NCBI GenBank assembly: GCA_031276945.1
Contig: JAISMB010000143.1
Span: 1 to 12,228, forward strand
Source: Spirochaetaceae bacterium
GTDB taxonomy: Bacteria > Spirochaetota > Spirochaetia > Treponematales > Breznakiellaceae
DNA length: 12,228 nt
Direction: 5' to 3'
Within the stretch, counting starts at the first letter, position 1. Every line of letters begins with the position of its first letter. The notes under the pieces were generated by a model. It made no database searches, was not told the origin of the DNA, and saw only the letters and a list, made by a program, of their open reading frames with translations. A program made the position numbers and the translations under genes. This document shows positions 1 through 12,228 of this stretch, one piece after another.

Positions 1-120
1 TTAAGTCAGACCTCGCCCCCCTTAAGTCAGACCTCGCCCCCCTTAAGTCAGACCTCGCCCCCCTTAAGTCAGACCTCGCCCCCCTTAAGTCAGACCTCGC
101 CCCCCTTAAGTCAGACCTGT
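1..120. repeat. Tandem 21-bp direct repeat TTAAGTCAGACCTCGCCCCCC: five perfect copies plus a partial sixth. The array reaches the window edge and may continue to the left.
   Basis: Perfect 21-bp periodicity is visible from positions 1-105. The partial last unit (TTAAGTCAGACCTG) contains the TGA stop of the adjacent minus-strand MCP gene. Confidence 0.95.
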
Positions 121-2312
121 TCCACCTTAAAACGGGAAACCTCCCGCATAAGCGCCGCTATCTGCCGGTGGTTCTCCCCGCTTATGTCCTGCACCTGGTT
201 CACCGCGGTGTTTATCTGCTCGGCTCCGCTGCTCATCTCCTCCATACCGTTCCCTATCTCAGTGGTGATTTTTCCTAGATTCTTACTTTCCTGCATCACC
301 GCACTGCTCCCCTGGAGCATCCCTTGGGCGCGCTGTTTCACTTCTCCAGTGATCTCGTTCAAACTGCCTATGGATTCCAGTATGGCGTTGCTCTCCGCCT
401 CCTGCCCTTCCATCGCTGTACGGATAGCAGCCTCCTTGTCCGTTACCAGCCGCACCTGCTCACTGATGTCCTCAAAGTTCAGCATTACCTCATTCGTCGC
501 TCTCGTGATCGTGTCTATTGAGTCTTTTATTTTGGCAAGCACTTCACTTATGGTCTTGGACTGCTCACCGGAAGACTCGGCGAGTTTGCGTATCTCATCA
601 GCGACAACGGCAAAGCCTTTGCCCGCCTCCCCCGCGTGCGCCGCCTCAATCGCCGCGTTCATGCTTAACAAGTTCGTCTGGTTTGCGATGTTTTCCATGA
701 CCCCGTTGATCTCAAATAACCCCGCTGATTCCCGGGCTATCTCTTGAATATCCCGCGAAACTTCCTGTAAGCCGCTCCTCCCCACTTCAGATGCGTGGGC
801 AAGTTTTTGGACATTGGCGGTGTTTTCTCCCAGACTTTGAGTTACGTCATGGATACTGTCCAGCATCTGTTCCACAGCGGATGAGGATTGGCTGACACAG
901 GAGGTCTGTTTTTCAATCTGCCGGTTTAAGGTCTCAAGGCTCTCCAGCATCTGTTCCATAACAGAATCGGTATTATGGACGCTCTGCACCTGTCTTTCAG
1001 TTTTGGAGGTGATGTTCCAAATGTTCGCGGTTATTTCATTAACGGTGGCGGCGGTATCCGCAACGTTCTCTTCAAGCTCCCCGCCTGTTTGGGAGAGGGC
1101 GTTCACCTCGTTCCGTATGGAGAGGACCAGGCGTTTTATCTGGTCGACGGTGAAGTTCAGATAATGGGCGAGGTCGCCCAGTTCATCGCGGGACTGTATC
1201 GTGATCTCTTTGGTCAAGTCGCCTCCGGCAATGTCTTTGAGAACCGCCATCGTATGGGTAAGAGGGTTGCTTATGGAACGGGCGGTGAGGATCGCCCCTG
1301 CGGACATAAAGATAATGGTAAGGACGCCGATGATGACGCAAATCCTAATCATCCGGTAAACCGGCGCCATGATGGCGCCTTGTGAAACGCCGACAACCAG
1401 CGTCCACGGTTGCGGAACACTCCCGATGGTGAACGGCACGGCATAGTACTGCATGACGCTTTCTGATTGTGCGGGACGGTACGAGAAGGAGGCGGCGGTT
1501 CCTGTGGTAACGGCGTTGACCACCGTCTCAAGGTAGGGTCCGAAGGTATCCTGCTCCGACTCGCGCATGTTCTTTCCCAGCCGGTCCGGGTCGGTGTGCG
1601 CGGCGATGATGCCGCCTGAACTGAACAGCAAGGCAAAGCCTTCTTCGCCGAATGGTTTGATTTTGCTGATCATAGCTTGCAGGGTTGATATTCCCATGCT
1701 ACATCCAATGGAGCCTATCTGGGCGCCGTTATCTTTTACGATGCTTCCCATATTTGCAATGACGCTTCTTCTTCCATCGCTTGCCGTATACACAGCAGGA
1801 TCAAGCATATAGTCCTCATAAAAATTAAACTTAAGATTCATCGCTAGAACCATGTTCCAGTCAAAGCCTACTATATAATTTAGTATAACTTGGTTATTGA
1901 CCAATGACCACGCGGGAATAAAGCGTCCGGTCTCATCGGTTCCGGGTGTGTTGGCATAGTCCTCGTCCAGCCCGTCCAGCCCGTTGGGGGACCAGTTGGC
2001 ATATATGCTGTTTAGTTCAGGATTCGCTCTGAGCGCATGTCTCATCATAAAGTTGAATTGTTCCCGCCGTTGTTCAACCGGTATGTCTTTGTACCCTTCC
2101 ATTACTTGTGCGAGGGTACGCGTCGTACCTATATACGTTTCAAACCATTTTCCGATTTGTTCGCCGGTATGGAGCGCAATGCTGTACACCTGCTCGTCCG
2201 CTAAACGGACGATTTCCTGCCGCGATTCAATAATCGTAAGTCCGGCTAAAAGACTAATGCCAATAATATTGATAACGCTGATGACCACCACCAGCTTAAT
2301 CCCGATTTTCAT
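111..2312 (-). CDS. Methyl-accepting chemotaxis protein: TM1, periplasmic Cache-like (probably double-Cache) sensor, TM2, HAMP, MCP signalling domain.
   Basis: 733-aa ORF with an ATG at 2310-2312 preceded by AAGGGAG. There is an N-terminal hydrophobic helix and a second TM around residue 320 ([23 protein letters not shown]). A HAMP-like segment follows ([20 protein letters not shown]...[12 protein letters not shown]). The highly conserved MCP signalling motif [33 protein letters not shown] is present. The gene ends RFKVEQV-TGA. Confidence 0.9.
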
Positions 2313-2604: not shown

Positions 2605-3277
2605 TCATGTGGGCTCGGGTGTTGTCCTAGGGGGTTTCGTCAAAAAGAAGGAAGATAAATCTGAGATAGAGAGCGGCGAGAAAGGAATCAGAACGTTTAG
2701 CATACCGAGTAGTACTACCTCTCTGTACTGCTTAAGCCACCGAAATACATGCTCAATGAGATGGCGCTTCTTATACAGCTCTGTGTCATAAGTCCTTACC
2801 ACTTTCCGACTACGCTTGGAAGGAATAACTACCTTACTACCTCCTGCACAGGCTGTGTCTATTACCTGGTTCACGTCATACCCCCTATCGGCAATCAAGA
2901 CTTTTACTGATAACCCTGCCATTAAGGGCGGTGCATAGGCGCAATCCGCCTCCTGCCCCGCTGAAACTATGATACGTACCGACTTTCCCTTCTTAATCTA
3001 TAGCAAGGTGGACTTTCGTATTGAGCCCCCTTGTGTACGCCCTATCCCGCCAGCGGCAAAATCTTCGGTATGTATTTTTCCAGTCGCCGTATTCAGGAGG
3101 TAAATCTCTCCAAGGAACGCCGGGTCTGATAATCCAGGATACAGCATTGATAAAGCGTCGATTGTCATGAGCCATTCGACCCTGTTTACCTGCCGCTTCT
3201 GGAAGTAAGTCTTTTATTTTTTCCCACAGCGTATCATTGATGTCGTGTCTGTGCAGTACTTTTCCGTTTTCTTTCAT
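2605..3277 (-). pseudogene. IS5-family DDE transposase, disrupted. It is split into ORFs 2993-3277 and 2605-2922, with an internal deletion of about 128 bp and a C-terminal frameshift.
   Basis: Relative to copy 2, the segment DVWKTIAAELIGEVDTQWLMIDATYSKVHADG...QAIG is missing. The deletion lies between GATAG microhomologies (junction near 3040-3050). Near 2730-2760 a 2-bp indel shifts the frame after LKQ, so the ORF ends in unrelated residues instead of the RGIA(T)RY... tail. Confidence 0.75.
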
Positions 3278-3322
3278 CTTGTTATCTTACTTTATTTCCT
3301 TCCTTTTGACGACACTCCCTAA
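2627..3322 (-). mobile_element. IS5-family (IS427/IS1031-like) insertion sequence, copy 1, degenerate.
   Basis: Terminal inverted repeats (C)TAGGGGGTTTCGTCAAAAAGAAGGAAGATAA at 2627 and TTAGGGAGTGTCGTCAAAAGGAAGGAAATAA (reverse complement) ending at about 3322. These match the ends of the second copy at 4208-5027. The internal ORFs carry the IS5-type N-terminal RRFINAVSWIIRPGVPWRDLPPEYGDW and C-terminal IADRGYD...YDTELYKKRHLIEHVF..LKQ motifs. Confidence 0.8.
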
Positions 3323-3344
3323 CATATTCCGGTAATAAATTTAT

Positions 3345-4205
3345 GGAGGTGATCCACAAAGAATGATGAACCTCAAATAAAGCCGTAATTGATGTATAAA
3401 GAAAGCAATATCAAAGGCTTTTCAGTGGTTGAACAGCTTTTGGAAAAACAGCAGTTCAGTTCCTCCGAAATGTCCGCCTTACCTGATGCCTCAACCGGTA
3501 ATTATTCCTCTCTATCCCTCCCATATGCTTTTTTCCTATGTTATGGTTGTCCTCCGCGAAAGCTGAAAGAAAACTGTCCCTATCGTCCGTCGCTATCCTG
3601 TCATAGCTTATCCCTATCTGTTTTATCCTCTTTACTTAACTTTTTTGCGGTTTTCAGGTCCACCTTTCCACAGACAAACGCCACAATTTTCTCGCTTCCC
3701 CGCTGATACGCGTATATCAGCCATAGGTTGTTCTCCTTTTTTCCTCTATACGTCCAACACTCGTCTATTTCAAGATGATCGTAGTAACTTCTCTTCGGTT
3801 TTATGTTATGTTTGGTTGATTTCAGTACTTTTAAGACTTTGGTGATACTGATGTCTGGTATGCCCATTCCCCGGACAAGCATGATTTTTACCAGTTCGAC
3901 TACCCGGGAAAGGCATCCCCGATAGGGTTTTTCATGGTCGCTTAAAAACTGACGTCCGCGGTCTTTACACTGGTAATTTTGCTTTCCCTTGCTCTTTTTC
4001 CCGTTTCGAGTTAAGGTGGAACTATGGCAATGGGGGCATTTGAGTTCTAATGTAAGGAAGAGCGTCGCTACTCCTCCTGTTGAGAAGGCTGTTAAACGGG
4101 GAATGGGCTTTGTGGTCCTCAAAATGCCAAAGCACAAAACCCATTGCGACTTTCTTCTTTTTCACTTTACAGCTTCATGGGCTGTACTGAGAAAGCGTCA
4201 CCGCC
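3345..4205 (-). mobile_element. IS1-family-like element with a frameshifted transposase.
   Basis: Putative terminal inverted repeats GGAGGTGATCC (3345-3355) and, in reverse complement, GGCGGTGACGC (4195-4205). These resemble the IS1 GGTGATGC termini. The coding content is IS1 InsA/InsB-like. Confidence 0.55.
3601..4137 (-). pseudogene. IS1-family transposase fragment (InsA-like zinc finger fused to the start of the InsB-like DDE domain). The remainder continues out of frame to about 3400.
   Basis: The 178-aa ORF contains CPHCHSSTLTRNGK...YQCKDRGRQF, a Cys4 zinc finger like IS1 InsA. It also contains IDECWTYRGKKENNLWLIYAYQRGSEKIVAFVCGK, comparable to IS1 InsB [20 protein letters not shown]...VVAHVFGER. 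After its stop at 3601, another minus frame reads ...HNIGKKHMGGIERNNYRLRH, which resembles IS1 InsB ...ISKRYTQRIERHNLNLRQH. The transposase is therefore frameshifted or internally deleted. Confidence 0.65.
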
Positions 4206-4207
4206 AT

Positions 4208-5027
4208 TAGGGAGTGTCGTCAAAAGGAAGGAAATAAAGTAAGATAACAAGATGAAAGAAAATGGAAAAGCATTGCACAGACACGACATCAGTGATAACC
4301 TGTGAGAAAAGATAAAAGACTTACTGCCAGGAGCGGCAGGTAAACAGGGTCAAATGGCTCATGACAATCGACGCTTTATCAATGCAGTATCCTGGATTAT
4401 CAGAACCGGCGTTCCAGACAGAGACTTACCTCCTGAATACGGAGACTGGAAAAATACACACCGAAGATTTTCCCGCTGGCGGGATAGAGATGTCTGGAAA
4501 ACAATAGCCGCTGAACTTATCGGGGAAGTGGATACCCAGTGGCTTATGATAGATGCAACTTATAGTAAAGTCCATGCAGACGGATGTACAGCGGTTGGAG
4601 GAAATCAAGCGATAGGGCGTACACAAGGGGGCTCAATACGAAAGTCCACCTTGCTATAGATAAGAAGGGAAAGCCAGTACGTATCATAGTTTCAGCGGGG
4701 CAGAAGGCGGATTGCGCGTATGCACCGCCCTTAATGGCAGGGTTATAGGTAAAAGTCTTGATTGCTGATAGAGGGTATGACATGAACCAGGTAATAGACA
4801 CAGCCTGTGCAGGAGGTATTAAGGTAGTTATTCCTTCCAAGCGTAGTCGGAAGGTGGTAAGGACTTATGACACAGAGCTGTATAAAAAGCGCCATCTTAT
4901 TGAGAATGTGTTTTGGTGGCTTAAACAGTGGAGAGGTATTGCTATTCGCTACGCTCAACGCTCTGATTCCTTTCTCGCCGCTCTCTATCTCAGATTTATC
5001 TTCCTTCCTTTTGACGACACGCCCTAG
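4208..5027 (+). mobile_element. IS5-family (IS427/IS1031-like) insertion sequence, copy 2, degenerate and inverted relative to copy 1.
   Basis: Left inverted repeat TTAGGGAGTGTCGTCAAAAGGAAGGAAATAAAG begins at about 4208. Right inverted repeat ...TTCCTTCCTTTTGACGACACGCCCTAG ends at about 5027. The two ends match each other with a single mismatch. The copy abuts the IS1-like right end with a 2-bp gap. Confidence 0.8.
4252..5027 (+). pseudogene. IS5-family DDE transposase, inactivated by a premature stop and at least two frameshifts.
   Basis: The ATG at 4252 gives MKENGKALHRHDISDNL and then TGA at 4303-4305, where copy 1 reads TLWEKIKDLL. The homology then continues in three different frames. 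ORF 4354-4659 reads RRFINAVSWII...QAIGRTQGGS. The next frame reads KVHLAIDKKGKPVRIIVSAGQKADCAYAPPLMAGL-stop. ORF 4758-5027 reads IADRGYDMNQV...RHLIENVFWWLKQWRGIAIRYAQRSDSFLAALYLRFI. Confidence 0.8.
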
Positions 5028-5060: not shown

Positions 5061-5130
5061 AAGAGAGGGGATAGGTCAGACCTTGCCCCTTCGCCTTAGC
5101 CCGCGATGCAACTCCCCCCATAGGTCAGAC
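5061..5130. repeat. Two degenerate copies of the TAAGTCAGACCTCG repeat core (ATAGGTCAGACCTTGCCCCT at 5061 and ATAGGTCAGACTTCCTG at 5110).
   Basis: Direct inspection shows ATAGGTCAGACC twice, 49 bp apart, immediately outside the IS5 copy 2 end and 70-140 bp from the atpG stop. Confidence 0.6.
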
Positions 5131-5201
5131 TTCCTGATCCGACTAGGATGGGCTTGAGAACTTCGTGCGTTACTGCTTTGTTTCTTGAGAGAGGGAGGCA
5201 T

Positions 5202-6083: not shown

Positions 6084-6254
6084 GATTTCGGTGGAAAAAG
6101 GAAGGGAGAGGGCGCGCAAAGTTCGCTTCTTCTGTCCTCTTTCCTGCTCCTGTCTTATAAGATTTACTCAAACCGAGAGGGATTTTTAAGTCTCGTGCCT
6201 GCTTCTTCCTGCGCTCGTTTCACGTGCGACATGCGCTCTCATATTCACAGGCTT

Positions 6255-6273
6255 CCCGCCAACGGCGGGTTTT
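6255..6273 (+). terminator. Plus-strand terminator-like GC hairpin plus T-tract (CCCGCCaacGGCGGG-TTTT), lying between two minus-strand genes.
   Basis: A perfect 6-bp GC stem with a 3-nt loop is followed by TTTT on the plus strand only. On the minus strand the same hairpin is followed by AAGCC, with no U tract. Confidence 0.35.
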
Positions 6274-6427
6274 AGTTAAACCGGTTGAACCGACCGTGCG
6301 CCGTTCTCAAGCACGATCCAACGCTGAAGCGGCTCGTTCGTCCGTTGTATGCCCTTGTTGTTCAAAGGCATTGCTTGCCACTGCTGAGAGGGTATCATTA
6401 TTCATTATGAAGTATAATACTCGTTTG

Positions 6428-8004: not shown

Positions 8005-8119
8005 CCAAAGGAAGTCTAGTTGTAAAATAACTATACCAGAAATAACGAACGGAACGCAAGCCCTCTTGACTGAAAAGCACGGCAGCCTCTCAGAAATCCT
8101 CAAGAGGTCTGACCGTGAG

Positions 8120-10507: not shown

Positions 10508-10536
10508 AGTATATCCTAAAGCATTGAACGGTAAAA
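10508..10536 (-). promoter_or_regulatory. Putative sigma-70-like promoter of the LRR gene (-35 TTTTAC, 17-nt spacer, -10 TATACT).
   Basis: The minus strand reads ccTTTTACcgttcaatgctttaggaTATACTgcttaaaaAGGAGttcaccgtATG. The -10 lies at 10508-10513 and the -35 at 10531-10536. It sits 14 bp downstream of the large repeat array. The leader would be very short. Confidence 0.25.
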
Positions 10537-10549
10537 GGGAAGGCTGGGG

Positions 10550-10835
10550 TAAGTCAGACCTCGGCTTCAGATAAGTCAGACCTCGCCCTCCGGTAAGTCA
10601 GACCTCGTCCCCAGATAAGTCAGACCTCGCCCTCCGGTAAGTCAGACCTCGCCCTCCGGTAAGTCAGACCTCGCCCTCCGGTAAGTCAGACCTCGCCCTC
10701 CGGTAAGTCAGACCTCGCCCTCCGATAAGTCAGACCTCGGCTTCAGATAGGTCAGACCTCGCCCTCCGGTAAGTCAGACCTCGCCCTCCGGTAAGTCAGA
10801 CCTCGCCCTCCGGTAAGTCAGACCTCGGCTCTGCA
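10550..10835. repeat. Tandem array of about 13 copies of the 22-bp unit TAAGTCAGACCTCGCCCTCCGG, with three variant units ending ...CGGCTTCAGA or ...CGTCCCCAGA.
   Basis: Strict 22-bp periodicity is read directly. Units 4-7 and 10-12 are identical, while units 1, 3 and 9 carry variant 3' halves. Each unit contains the interrupted palindrome GTCAGAC (GTCNGAC). Confidence 0.95.
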
Positions 10836-10840
10836 TATCA

Positions 10841-10928
10841 GAAAGATGCGGGAGTCCCGACCGAGAGATGCGGGAGTCTCGGCTGAGAGATGCGGGAGTC
10901 TCGACCGAGAGATGCGGCAGTCTCAGGC
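10841..10928. repeat. Second tandem array: four copies of the 22-bp unit GAGAGATGCGGGAGTCTCGRCC.
   Basis: The sequence reads GAAAGATGCGGGAGTCCCGACC / GAGAGATGCGGGAGTCTCGGCT / GAGAGATGCGGGAGTCTCGACC / GAGAGATGCGGCAGTCTCAGGC. The core contains the interrupted palindrome GAGTCTC. The array ends 14 bp from the SPFH gene stop. Confidence 0.9.
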
Positions 10929-10941
10929 GCACGGTCAAGCC

Positions 10942-11994
10942 TTATTCTTTCTTGTGCAGTTCCGCCAGAGCTTGCAGCCCAAAGATAGAACCGTCTTTGA
11001 GTTCTTCGGTGATTTCATTCGGCACGAGCATCATGGAATTGCCCGCCTTTAAGCCTTCGTTCAGAATGGAGAGCGTTTTTAATTTCAGCGCATTCATATC
11101 GTGCGCATACACCGCAGCAGCATCCGCCAGCCGATTGGCAATATCAATCTCAGCCTCGGCAAGCAGGATACGGCTCTTCTTTTCCCGTTCAGCCTGCGCA
11201 AGACGCGCAAGAGAATCCTGCAATCCCTCAGGAATCTGAATGTCGGTAATTTCAATATGCTGGATGGTAATGCCCCATTCGGTTGTCTTCTCGTCAACCG
11301 TGGCTTGCAGTTTCCGTTCAATAACCCGACTGTCGCGCAAAAACGTGGTCAGGTCAGTGCTGGAAACCGCATTGCGCAGCGCGGTCTTCGATGATAAAAT
11401 CACCGCCTGCTCATAGTTTTCAACTTCCAAAGCGGCTTTCTCCGCATCCCAGACAAGCCAAAAACAGAGCGCGTCAACCTGCATCGTAACCGAATCAAGA
11501 CTCAGCGTTTCCTGTGTGGAAAAATCAGAGACCCGTATGCGCATATCAATCCGCTGGGCAATACGATCCAGCAGCGGGATCAGGAAGAAAACCCCCGGAC
11601 CACGCACCCGATAGAAACGACCGAGCCGCAGCACCACCGCCCGCTCCCATTCATCACATTTTTGCAGCACCGGCGCCACAAAAACCACGATACCGGCACA
11701 GAGGGCGCTCAACGTATAATACGGAAAGCCCAAAACCGCGCCGGTAATAACGGCAAGAAAAAAAATCTTAACCGCATCCACCCACCGCGGGAAGAGCAGC
11801 ATACCGATAAGCGCGCTCACCGGAATACCGGCAAGCACGCCCCATTCTCCGAGCGTCGGCGTATCGCCGCGGCTTATGCGCAGCGCCAGCACGACCATAA
11901 GACTGAGCGCAACCATGCCGATACCGGTTGTATTTAATACCCAGTCCGACCTTTTGCTAGCCCGCGGCTTATTTTTTATCAGCATATCCTTCAT
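10942..11994 (-). CDS. SPFH/band-7 (stomatin/HflKC-like) membrane protein with a three-TM N-terminal extension.
   Basis: 350-aa ORF with an ATG at 11992-11994 preceded by GAGGAGG. There are three hydrophobic helices in the first 120 aa. An SPFH core follows (RAVVLRLGRFYRVRGPGVFFLIPLLDRI...VTMQVDALCFWLVWDAEKAALEV). The C-terminal coiled-coil, rich in Ala and Glu (LARLAQAEREKKSRILLAEAEIDIANRLADAA), is typical of the family. Confidence 0.8.
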   Translation of the reverse strand: MKDMLIKNKPRASKRSDWVLNTTGIGMVALSLMVVLALRISRGDTPTLGEWGVLAGIPVSALIGMLLFPRWVDAVKIFFLAVITGAVLGFPYYTLSALCAGIVVFVAPVLQKCDEWERAVVLRLGRFYRVRGPGVFFLIPLLDRIAQRIDMRIRVSDFSTQETLSLDSVTMQVDALCFWLVWDAEKAALEVENYEQAVILSSKTALRNAVSSTDLTTFLRDSRVIERKLQATVDEKTTEWGITIQHIEITDIQIPEGLQDSLARLAQAEREKKSRILLAEAEIDIANRLADAAAVYAHDMNALKLKTLSILNEGLKAGNSMMLVPNEITEELKDGSIFGLQALAELHKKE

Positions 11995-12228
11995 AAATCC
12001 TCCTCATTGCAGCGGATAATCATGCAGCGGCTCAAAGACTTTCGCGCGTTTCACGCCCCTTTCTCCGAGCGTCGGCGTCCCGCCGCGGCTGATACGCAGC
12101 GCCAGCACGACCATAAGACTGAGCGCAACCATGCCGCTGCCGCTTGTATTTAATACCCAGTCCGACCTTTTGCTAGCCCGCGGCTTATTTTTTATCAGCA
12201 TATCCTTCATAAATCCTCCTCATTGCAG
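11845..12228. repeat. Direct tandem duplication with a 216-bp period that spans the SPFH gene's RBS, start codon and first 50 codons. Copy 1 is 11845-12012, a 48-bp spacer follows, and copy 2 is 12061-12228 at the window edge.
   Basis: The 168-bp blocks are about 93% identical. Both end with the same 72 nt: CCAGTCCGACCTTTTGCTAGCCCGCGGCTTATTTTTTATCAGCATATCCTTCATAAATCCTCCTCATTGCAG. The upstream copy yields ORF 12004-12210. Confidence 0.9.
12004..12210 (-). pseudogene. Truncated duplicate of the SPFH-protein N-terminus (68 aa). It is in frame with the downstream full-length gene and separated from it by TGA plus three codons.
   Basis: MKDMLIKNKPRASKRSDWVLNTSGSGMVALSLMVVLALRISRGGTPTLGERGV... compares with the full gene's MKDMLIKNKPRASKRSDWVLNTTGIGMVALSLMVVLALRISRGDTPTLGEWGV.... 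It has its own GAGGAGG RBS copy. The stop is TGA at 12004-12006, followed by GGA GGA TTT ATG. Confidence 0.6.

Follow-up and report, generated by a model that had tools for sequence, protein, structure and literature searches.

The systems that come closest to the repeat family reported here are the repetitive extragenic palindromic (REP) sequences and bacterial interspersed mosaic elements (BIMEs) with their REP-associated tyrosine transposases (RAYTs), also discussed as REPtrons and REPINs. They have been described mainly in Proteobacteria, Cyanobacteria, Chloroflexi and the PVC group, with single-copy, vertically inherited transposases and repeats that form hairpins. REPs lie mostly downstream of coding regions, are often tandemly reiterated, and their termini often provide the stop codon of a flanking open reading frame (ORF) (PMC3733652). 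REP stems usually measure 6-13 bp, or 5 bp in Thauera, and spirochaetes are not amongst the phyla listed for GTAG REPs in a 2013 survey (PMC3733652). Here, we describe contig JAISMB010000143.1 of a Spirochaetaceae bacterium (12,228 bp, analysed as a whole and called the window below), in which a head-to-tail array of a 21 bp unit, array 1, lies at the left edge and contributes the stop codon of a gene encoding a methyl-accepting chemotaxis protein (MCP). We assign a probability of roughly 0.6 to the reading that array 1 is the assembled edge of a lineage-specific extragenic repeat array, belonging to a family associated with a many-copy RAYT-type Y1/HUH transposase.

The preliminary description of this DNA had noted a 21 bp repeat in at least 5.5 copies at the window edge. 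The array is indeed present, as 5.6 perfect copies at positions 1-118 in which exact period-21 identity extends through base 118 and the partial last copy (106-118) is 13 nt long, but its unit reads TCAGACCTC, not TCAGACCTG. Since the window is the entire 12,228 bp contig and array 1 runs off the left contig end, 5.6 copies represent a lower bound, and the perfect identity may derive in part from short-read assemblers ending contigs within perfect arrays. The 21 bp unit had also been thought to differ by a single C from the 22 bp unit of a second array in the window (array 2); instead, they have the 17-mer TAAGTCAGACCTCGCCC in common, and the remaining 4-5 nt are different.

The 3′ end of the MCP gene, GAA CAG GTC TGA, is the reverse complement of positions 111-122. 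Because the unit contains TCAGACCTC and not TCAGACCTG, the ORF overlaps array 1 by 8 nt (AG GTC TGA, 111-118) rather than 9. The earlier proposal that the last two codons and the stop codon are made of repeat sequence therefore holds for the stop codon and Val733, but only for two thirds of Gln732. The C-terminus was compared with those of the 120 best MCP homologues, mainly from uncultured Treponema and Spirochaetaceae bins and the termite-gut spirochaetes Hollandina and Pillotina. Almost every complete protein (about 115 of the 120) terminates one residue past RFKV, with KVE (29), KVD (12) and KVA (8) amongst the endings, and no repeat-free homologue ends at the same residue as the window protein. 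The latter, which ends RFKVEQV, is longer than the norm by two residues, QV, and we conclude that the repeat replaced the native stop. The rewriting of the C-terminus is modest, however, as it concerns two residues past the last conserved position and touches no domain; the effect of the two residues is probably neutral. In MCP orientation, the array 1 unit contains stop codons (TAA and TGA) in two of the three frames, so that an ORF losing its own stop before the array ends almost immediately.

The closest relative of the window MCP, P0002 (76% identical), is encoded on contig L012, which is 79.6% identical to the window at the DNA level over 2.4 kb including the upstream region. This identity breaks off exactly at the Val codon of RFKV. 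Past RFKV, L012 carries one oppositely oriented repeat unit (aag GTA AGT CAG ACC TCG CCC TCa ccc tag), giving RFKV-SQTSPSP, and the end of an IS5-family insertion sequence (IS) lies directly 3′ of this unit. A third protein, P0003 (74% identical to the window MCP), ends RFKVERV; its accession, MDR2150401(.1), falls in the window's bin (MDR2151118, MDR2151122), which identifies it as a paralogue. The ends are altered in all three closest MCPs, and the repeat is demonstrably involved in two. The E-(Q/R)-V-stop ending common to the two paralogues suggests, at the protein level, that the core came to overlap the stop codon before the present array formed. As REP termini are documented as stop codons (PMC3733652), the phenomenon is known for this kind of element: the stop-codon overlap is an ordinary side effect of such repeats, and the overlap first flagged is a by-product.

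Within the window, the 14-mer TAAGTCAGACCTCG (up to two mismatches) had 20 matches, all on the + strand, compared with 0.06 expected from shuffled sequences. The family had been said to be dispersed over three loci in 12 kb. It is dispersed, but over five window loci, and it recurs in the related contigs L012, L087, L013, L083 and L084. The 20 array units share one strand and a direct orientation with the single copies at 5071 and 5120, and no inverted REPIN doublets were seen in the window. In array 2, the 14 nt core is invariant and the 8 nt remainder variable, with variant units returning as two-unit blocks. The left border of the RAYT unit on contig L087 (ATAGGACAGACCTTGACCTCGCCC) is similar to the single copy at 5067-5089. 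The unit of the array at 10844-10924 differs from that of array 2; its GAGTCTCGACC is loosely like the AAGTCAGACC core, and the array may represent a further repeat class of this type of element. A sigma-70-like promoter match (TTTACC, 16 nt, TATACT; 10508-10535, - strand) is positioned between array 2 and the start of a gene for a BspA-type leucine-rich repeat (LRR) protein, with array 2 upstream of the -35 hexamer at a distance of ~13 bp.

Related contigs were found via homologues of the MCP, the slipin (Band 7) protein and the IS5 transposase. Core density was counted in the window plus L012, L013, L014, L083 and L084, 46 kb together; L087, which has further cores, is not part of this count. 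The motif GTCWGACC/GGTCWGAC occurred 35 times in 7.7 kb of non-coding DNA (4.57 per kb) versus five times in 38.8 kb of coding DNA (0.13 per kb), a density ~35-fold higher in non-coding DNA, and two of the five coding matches are the MCP-end overlaps. Approximately 11 of some 17 extragenic loci, read from the table of positions, are located no more than 100 nt 3′ of a stop codon, with no strong orientation bias. The conserved core is RTAR-GTCAGACCT-Y, that is, an 11 bp near-palindrome, A(A/G)GTC-A-GACCT, after a GTAG-like tag. L012 and L087, from one JGI sample, carry this variant. The relative bin GCA_031284085.1 (L013, L083 and L084; slipin 79% identical) carries RGGG-GTCAGACCTC, and AGGTCTGACC is the commonest 10-mer in 27 kb of that bin. 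The four bases before GTCAGAC are GTAA, ATAA, ATAG, GTAG or TTAA in the window lineage and RGGG in the relative bin; the exact GTAG tag is found in just two independent copies. Core-bearing arrays have periods of 14 bp in L013, 19 bp in L084, 21 and 22 bp in the window, and 63 bp in L083. The core is the constant element, and its amplification is local. In 21 kb of Breznakiella homolactica (slipin 62% identical), there is one core, which is intragenic, and there are no arrays; the family is not evident there. The relative bin also contains more intergenic tandem families, with 62 and 83 bp units that include GGCAAAAAGCCGTACGCC...CCCGATACAA, beside the core-bearing 63 bp hairpin units, and these genomes are unusually rich in intergenic repeats.

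The link to a transposase, which the preliminary description had not recognized, comes from the same related contigs. A Pfam Y1_Tnp gene is found three times in 9 kb on L087, with IS5 insertions in two of the copies. Against the NCBIfam model NF047646 ('REP-associated tyrosine transposase', cutoff 80 bits), the full-length copy scored 92.2 bits and an N-terminally truncated copy 79.7 bits, just under the cutoff. The IS200 TnpA model NF033573 (cutoff 55) gave 23-25 bits, under its cutoff, for the L087 copies and for proteins of the window's bin. At its left end, L012 carries the N-terminal part of the same transposase gene. When the L087 and L012 copies are aligned, homology begins at ATAGGACAGACCTT, 110 nt before the ATG (the left border core), and stops just past GGAGGACAGACCTCAAGCTGCTT, which comprises the codons W-R-T-D-L-K-L-L at the C-terminus (the right border core, in codons R-T-D-L). 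In L087 copy 1, ATAGGACAGACCTT is followed by GACCTCGCCCTC, so that the stretch resembles the whole 22 bp unit of the window. The cores at both borders of the unit are in direct orientation, and recognition sequences in direct orientation at both ends are expected for strand-specific single-strand enzymes of the IS200/IS605 type. Near the N-terminus of the transposase, in the first 20 codons, the codons D-Q-G-L-T-Y correspond to CAAGGTCTGACTTAT, a 13/14 inverted match to the window core. Inverted core pairs were seen solely around the RAYT start codon in L087 and L012 and, as small overlapping pairs, in L084. In L084, from a more distant genome, six to seven cores occupy the 230 bp that separate an MCP stop codon from the N-terminus of a RAYT homologue at the contig end (tblastn E 9e-8), and the leader sequences are recognizably alike as well.

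At 90% identity, the L087 protein belongs to a cluster of 35 members, of which at least 13, near-identical to one another, have accessions in the range MDR2149498-MDR2151179, on 13 different contigs, and the range brackets the window's MDR2151118 and MDR2151122. The three 174 aa proteins of the window's bin that were scanned (P0486, P0494 and P0487) scored 94-98 bits on NF047646. Full-length copies all contain GNHFHF and Y-I-D-Q-N-P and end in ...AWRTDLKLLL, and the sole match of P0486 in the PDB was Escherichia coli TnpA-REP (4ER8). The window's genome has many copies of a RAYT-type gene whose borders, as seen in the related contigs, bear the core.

Table 1. Positions of repeat loci, the chemoreceptor gene and transposase units in the window and in related contigs
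Feature	Position	Strand	Details
Array 1, head-to-tail	1-118	+	5.6 x 21 bp, unit TTAAGTCAGACCTCGCCCCCC, 100% matches, score 236 (Tandem Repeats Finder)
Gene-proximal diverged unit TTAAGTCAGACCTGTTCCACC	106-126	+	17/21 to the TTAAGTCAGACCTCGCCCCCC unit; reverse complement is V-E-Q-V-stop of the MCP
MCP stop codon TGA	111-113	-	Within repeat core (GTCTGAC on gene strand)
MCP gene, 733 aa	111-2312	-	dCache_1, HAMP and MCPsignal domains; C-terminus RFKVEQV
Single copy ATAGGTCAGACCTTG in small palindrome GGGGATAGGTCAGACCTTGCCCC	5067-5089 (copy 5071-5085)	+	3′ of atpG; IS5 copy B ends 40 nt away
Degenerate single copy ATAGGTCAGACTTCC	5120-5134	+	71 nt 3′ of atpG stop; direct orientation to 5071 copy
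Single copy CGGTCAGACCTC	8104-8115	-	7 nt past LRR gene stop codon
Array 2, head-to-tail	10548-10833	+	13 x 22 bp, consensus GGTAAGTCAGACCTCGCCCTCC; between slipin (Band 7) stop and LRR gene promoter-like site
Second 22 bp array, unit AGATGCGGGAGTCTCGACCGAG x 3.7	10844-10924	+	Abuts array 2; 18 nt from slipin stop codon
RAYT-type gene copies	L087: 1001-1591; 5650-6194 (-); 7126-7698
Borders of ~0.77 kb transposase unit			ATAGGACAGACCTTG... and ...GGACAGACCTCAAGCTGCTT
Extra tandem families of relative bin	L083: 6005-6277, 12449-12700; L013: 60-180

In the mechanism that we propose, the transposase would spread or maintain single core copies, and these would grow locally, by slippage or unequal exchange, into arrays of differing period. 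One copy would have landed or fused directly behind Glu731 of the MCP, removing the native stop, so that reading would continue through C-AG GTC and end at the TGA within the core. The MCP junction would probably be old, and the array expansion recent.

A number of observations weigh against the association of array 1 with a RAYT-type transposase. As single-stranded DNA, the 21 and 22 bp units of the window gave folding z-scores of -0.14, -0.42, +1.94 and +0.31 relative to shuffled sequences, and formed no hairpins. The palindrome of the core has 5 bp arms around a 1 nt centre and is barely palindromic; in the window, solely the single copy at 5067-5089 forms a hairpin, a small one, whilst the 63 bp units of the relative bin are structured (z -2.65 and -3.60). 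No transposase gene or remnant was found within the window. The core is placed at the homology borders by two to three copies per border, and the transposase is linked to the same genome by contiguous NCBI accession numbers, of proteins only. The core is absent from L086 (11 kb with a ribosomal protein operon, from the same sample as L012 and L087), and at about one core per 220 bp of non-coding DNA, chance proximity to any gene is expected. Finally, a head-to-tail arrangement, as seen in the window arrays, is rare amongst REPs (PMC3733652), and RAYTs are typically single copy and housekeeping-like (Bertels et al. 2017, PMC5581495), compared with at least 13 copies here.

These points define how the family compares with REP/RAYT systems. 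It resembles them as a set of short, high-copy extragenic repeats that are mostly 3′ of genes and tandem at some loci, with RTAR, a possible GTAG-like tag, beside a short palindrome and, in related contigs, copies flanking a Y1 transposase gene that scores above the RAYT-model cutoff. It differs in that the window units are barely palindromic, the arrays are unfolded and run head to tail without inverted REPIN pairs in the window, the tag is RTAR rather than a fixed GTAG, the transposase is present in at least 13 copies rather than one, and the host is a spirochaete. As the units lack the stem-loop and the transposase is not single copy, we do not file the family as plain REP, though it is REP-like in its working. 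A possible role in transcription termination was rejected, as the window arrays have neither hairpins nor T-runs; in the relative bin, cores precede T-runs, and L084 has small hairpins.

Given the transposase copy number (at least 13), 'IS200-like insertion sequence with end-derived short repeats' may be the better name for the element. IS200/IS605 elements and their miniature derivatives (PATEs) share with it a many-copy Y1/HUH unit, here of ~0.77 kb, that lacks terminal inverted repeats, similar end sequences in direct orientation, and short non-autonomous derivatives in intergenic DNA. However, the protein fits the RAYT model and not the IS200 model (24-25 bits versus a cutoff of 55), clear subterminal hairpins were not found at the ends of the L087 transposase units (z -1.57 and +1.05), and no target tetranucleotide emerged from the two to three copies. 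We speculate, tentatively, that the RAYT-type transposase is proliferating like an IS instead of being a domesticated single-copy gene, and that the non-hairpin 21 and 22 bp arrays are its non-autonomous products.

The GTAG-1 REPs of Thauera sp. MZ1T offer a parallel in their 5 bp stems and mostly clustered tandem arrays, which were found via a tandem-repeat database (PMC3733652). The Thauera arrays flank surface-polysaccharide genes (PMC3733652), just as array 2 precedes a gene for a surface LRR protein. The Thauera REPs differ in that they have another sequence, belong to another phylum and are tagged stem-loops. The Correia elements of Neisseria are small dispersed repeats that remodel gene ends. 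Rickettsia palindromic elements (RPEs) and Neisseria dRS3 are likewise small dispersed repeats that can give codons or a stop to a host gene (PMC3733652). RPEs, Correia elements and dRS3 are longer palindromic units that can add tens of residues, whereas the contribution here is two residues and a stop codon.

An ordinary minisatellite (variable number tandem repeat), in which a local duplication has grown by slippage with no relation to a mobile element and the stop overlap is incidental, is unlikely. The full homogeneity of array 1, the absence of secondary structure from both arrays and the recurrence of array 2 variant units in blocks, which fits slippage or unequal exchange of multi-unit segments, would all be in keeping with it. 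But a core of 10-14 nt recurs at five window loci and in five related contigs, as single copies and as arrays of several periods, and the sampled data already point to hundreds of dispersed cores genome-wide. Slippage explains the growth of arrays, not the dispersal of a core that borders RAYT-type genes.

It is also improbable that the core serves to bind some DNA-binding protein of the cell (be it a regulator, a nucleoid protein or a partition/iteron-type factor), with the arrays acting as binding platforms that, for example, control the LRR gene. An 11 bp near-palindrome devoid of hairpin potential is typical of dimeric protein sites, the 21 and 22 bp periods approximate two helical turns, and the end of array 2 is ~13 bp upstream of the -35 hexamer of the sigma-70-like promoter of the LRR gene. 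Moreover, the core is conserved, and its flanks differ, between genomes whose orthologous slipins are 79% identical. A binding array is nevertheless the less economical explanation, because most copies lie past stop codons and not in promoters, and there are also arrays with periods of 14, 19 and 63 bp. The neighbourhood encodes no candidate binding protein, and the link to the borders of the transposase unit is a simpler reason for conservation of the core. Plasmid iterons or centromere-like arrays were rejected as well, since neither a rep nor a par gene is encoded in the window and members of the family are scattered across many chromosomal loci.

The direction of causality could be the reverse, with array 1 born from the last 21 nt of the MCP gene itself (TTAAGG-N7-GGTCTGAC), in which the core was already present, so that the gene end seeded the array; we regard this as doubtful. 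The unit at 106-126 matches the array unit at 17 of 21 positions, the TTAA at 127 (F-K codons TTTAAG) is in phase with the array, and TTAAG occurs in array 1 only, other copies having GTAAG, ATAAG or ATAGG. The E-R-V-stop of paralogue P0003 also has the same length as the E-Q-V of the window protein. On the other side, the five non-coding units carry the family consensus CGAGGTCTGAC (CGAGG), which is absent from the gene copy with its ACAGGTCTGAC, and therefore look like members of the family and not like copies of the gene end. The 6 nt in-phase match was noticed afterwards and is weak evidence. Seeding from the gene end would, in addition, need an earlier event that placed the core over the stop codon, because the other homologues end two residues earlier.

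That the edge array is a product of the short-read assembler is very improbable: array 1 does touch base 1, is 100% identical over 118 nt, as would be carried (k-1 bases) by a de Bruijn unitig entering a perfect cycle, and the right contig end likewise lies in a repeat, but the 85 nt exact terminal repeat at that end would call for a different k, array 2 was assembled, variants included, in the interior of the contig, the family is seen independently in single copies and in related contigs, and the junction with unique MCP sequence is inside the contig, so that only the copy number is unreliable. Two further candidates were set aside. That the core, being short, conserved and located at gene ends, is a DNA-uptake sequence is supported by no evidence, and the link to the transposase accounts better for the data. 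An IS5 target site was considered because an IS5 end abuts the repeat in L012 and another is 40 nt from a window copy, but the IS5 copies are flanked by CTAG, the usual target of the IS5-type family, and the IS5 copies of L086 have no core nearby.

Searches of genome, metagenome and viral collections gave no matches beyond chance or unrelated ones. In species-representative genomes (596 Gb, the window's bin not amongst them), TAAGTCAGACCTCGCCC had 10 single matches, in unrelated phyla and at the estimated chance level. Two adjacent cores had one match in metagenomes, an unrelated coding repeat rich in Ser, Gly, Gln and Thr. Doublets of CAGACCTCG in viral contigs gave 68 loci, none with the GTCAGACC core and mostly coding repeats or 15 bp arrays. 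Such 15 bp arrays (GCAGACCTCG plus five variable bases) were observed near the ends of IMG/VR contigs (L022, L029, L034, L045, L051, L068 and others); they have CAGACCTCG but not the GTCAGACC core and so are probably unrelated. The translated 21 bp array (LSQTSPP repeats) was compared with 1.8 billion protein representatives and returned only low-complexity Ser/Thr/Pro proteins and a few ORFs with LSQT heptads, none of them a useful lead. A full-text literature search with the core sequence returned primer matches only, and no Rfam family matched in the window.

Other features of the window include a 216 bp direct duplication (95% identical, 1.8 copies) at the right edge (11836-12228), which covers the 5′ end of the slipin (Band 7) gene and its upstream region. 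The last 85 nt of the window are an exact copy of 11928-12012, and the tandem duplication may be genuine or may have arisen in assembly. At 2605-5027, two decayed IS5-family copies in inverted orientation (2605-3320, - strand; 4209-5027, + strand) flank an IS1-like fragment (3601-4137). The IS5 copies are 92.5% identical, one with a 123 bp deletion and the other with a premature stop, and the same element (92-94% identical) is present at the end of L012. This block occupies the place after atpG where atpD and atpC would be expected, leaving atpA and atpG as all that remains of the F-type ATPase operon. These two genes are normally adjacent; here, ~300 nt of apparently non-coding DNA without the core motif (6120-6427) lies between them.

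This repeat family resides in a spirochaete bin that is fragmentary and laden with ISs and that derives from a termite-gut-type community. For annotators of such genomes, C-terminal variation and contig breaks are to be expected at these repeats and, if the family is confirmed, the tendency of its arrays to end contigs would help to explain why such bins assemble poorly. If this transposase is indeed proliferating like an IS, changes of array copy number at gene ends, or before the surface LRR gene, could alter expression. It would also mean that a REP/RAYT system has been caught expanding, in the manner of an IS, in a new phylum and, if confirmed, the family would provide a natural case for the passage of a RAYT between the 'selfish IS' and 'domesticated' states.

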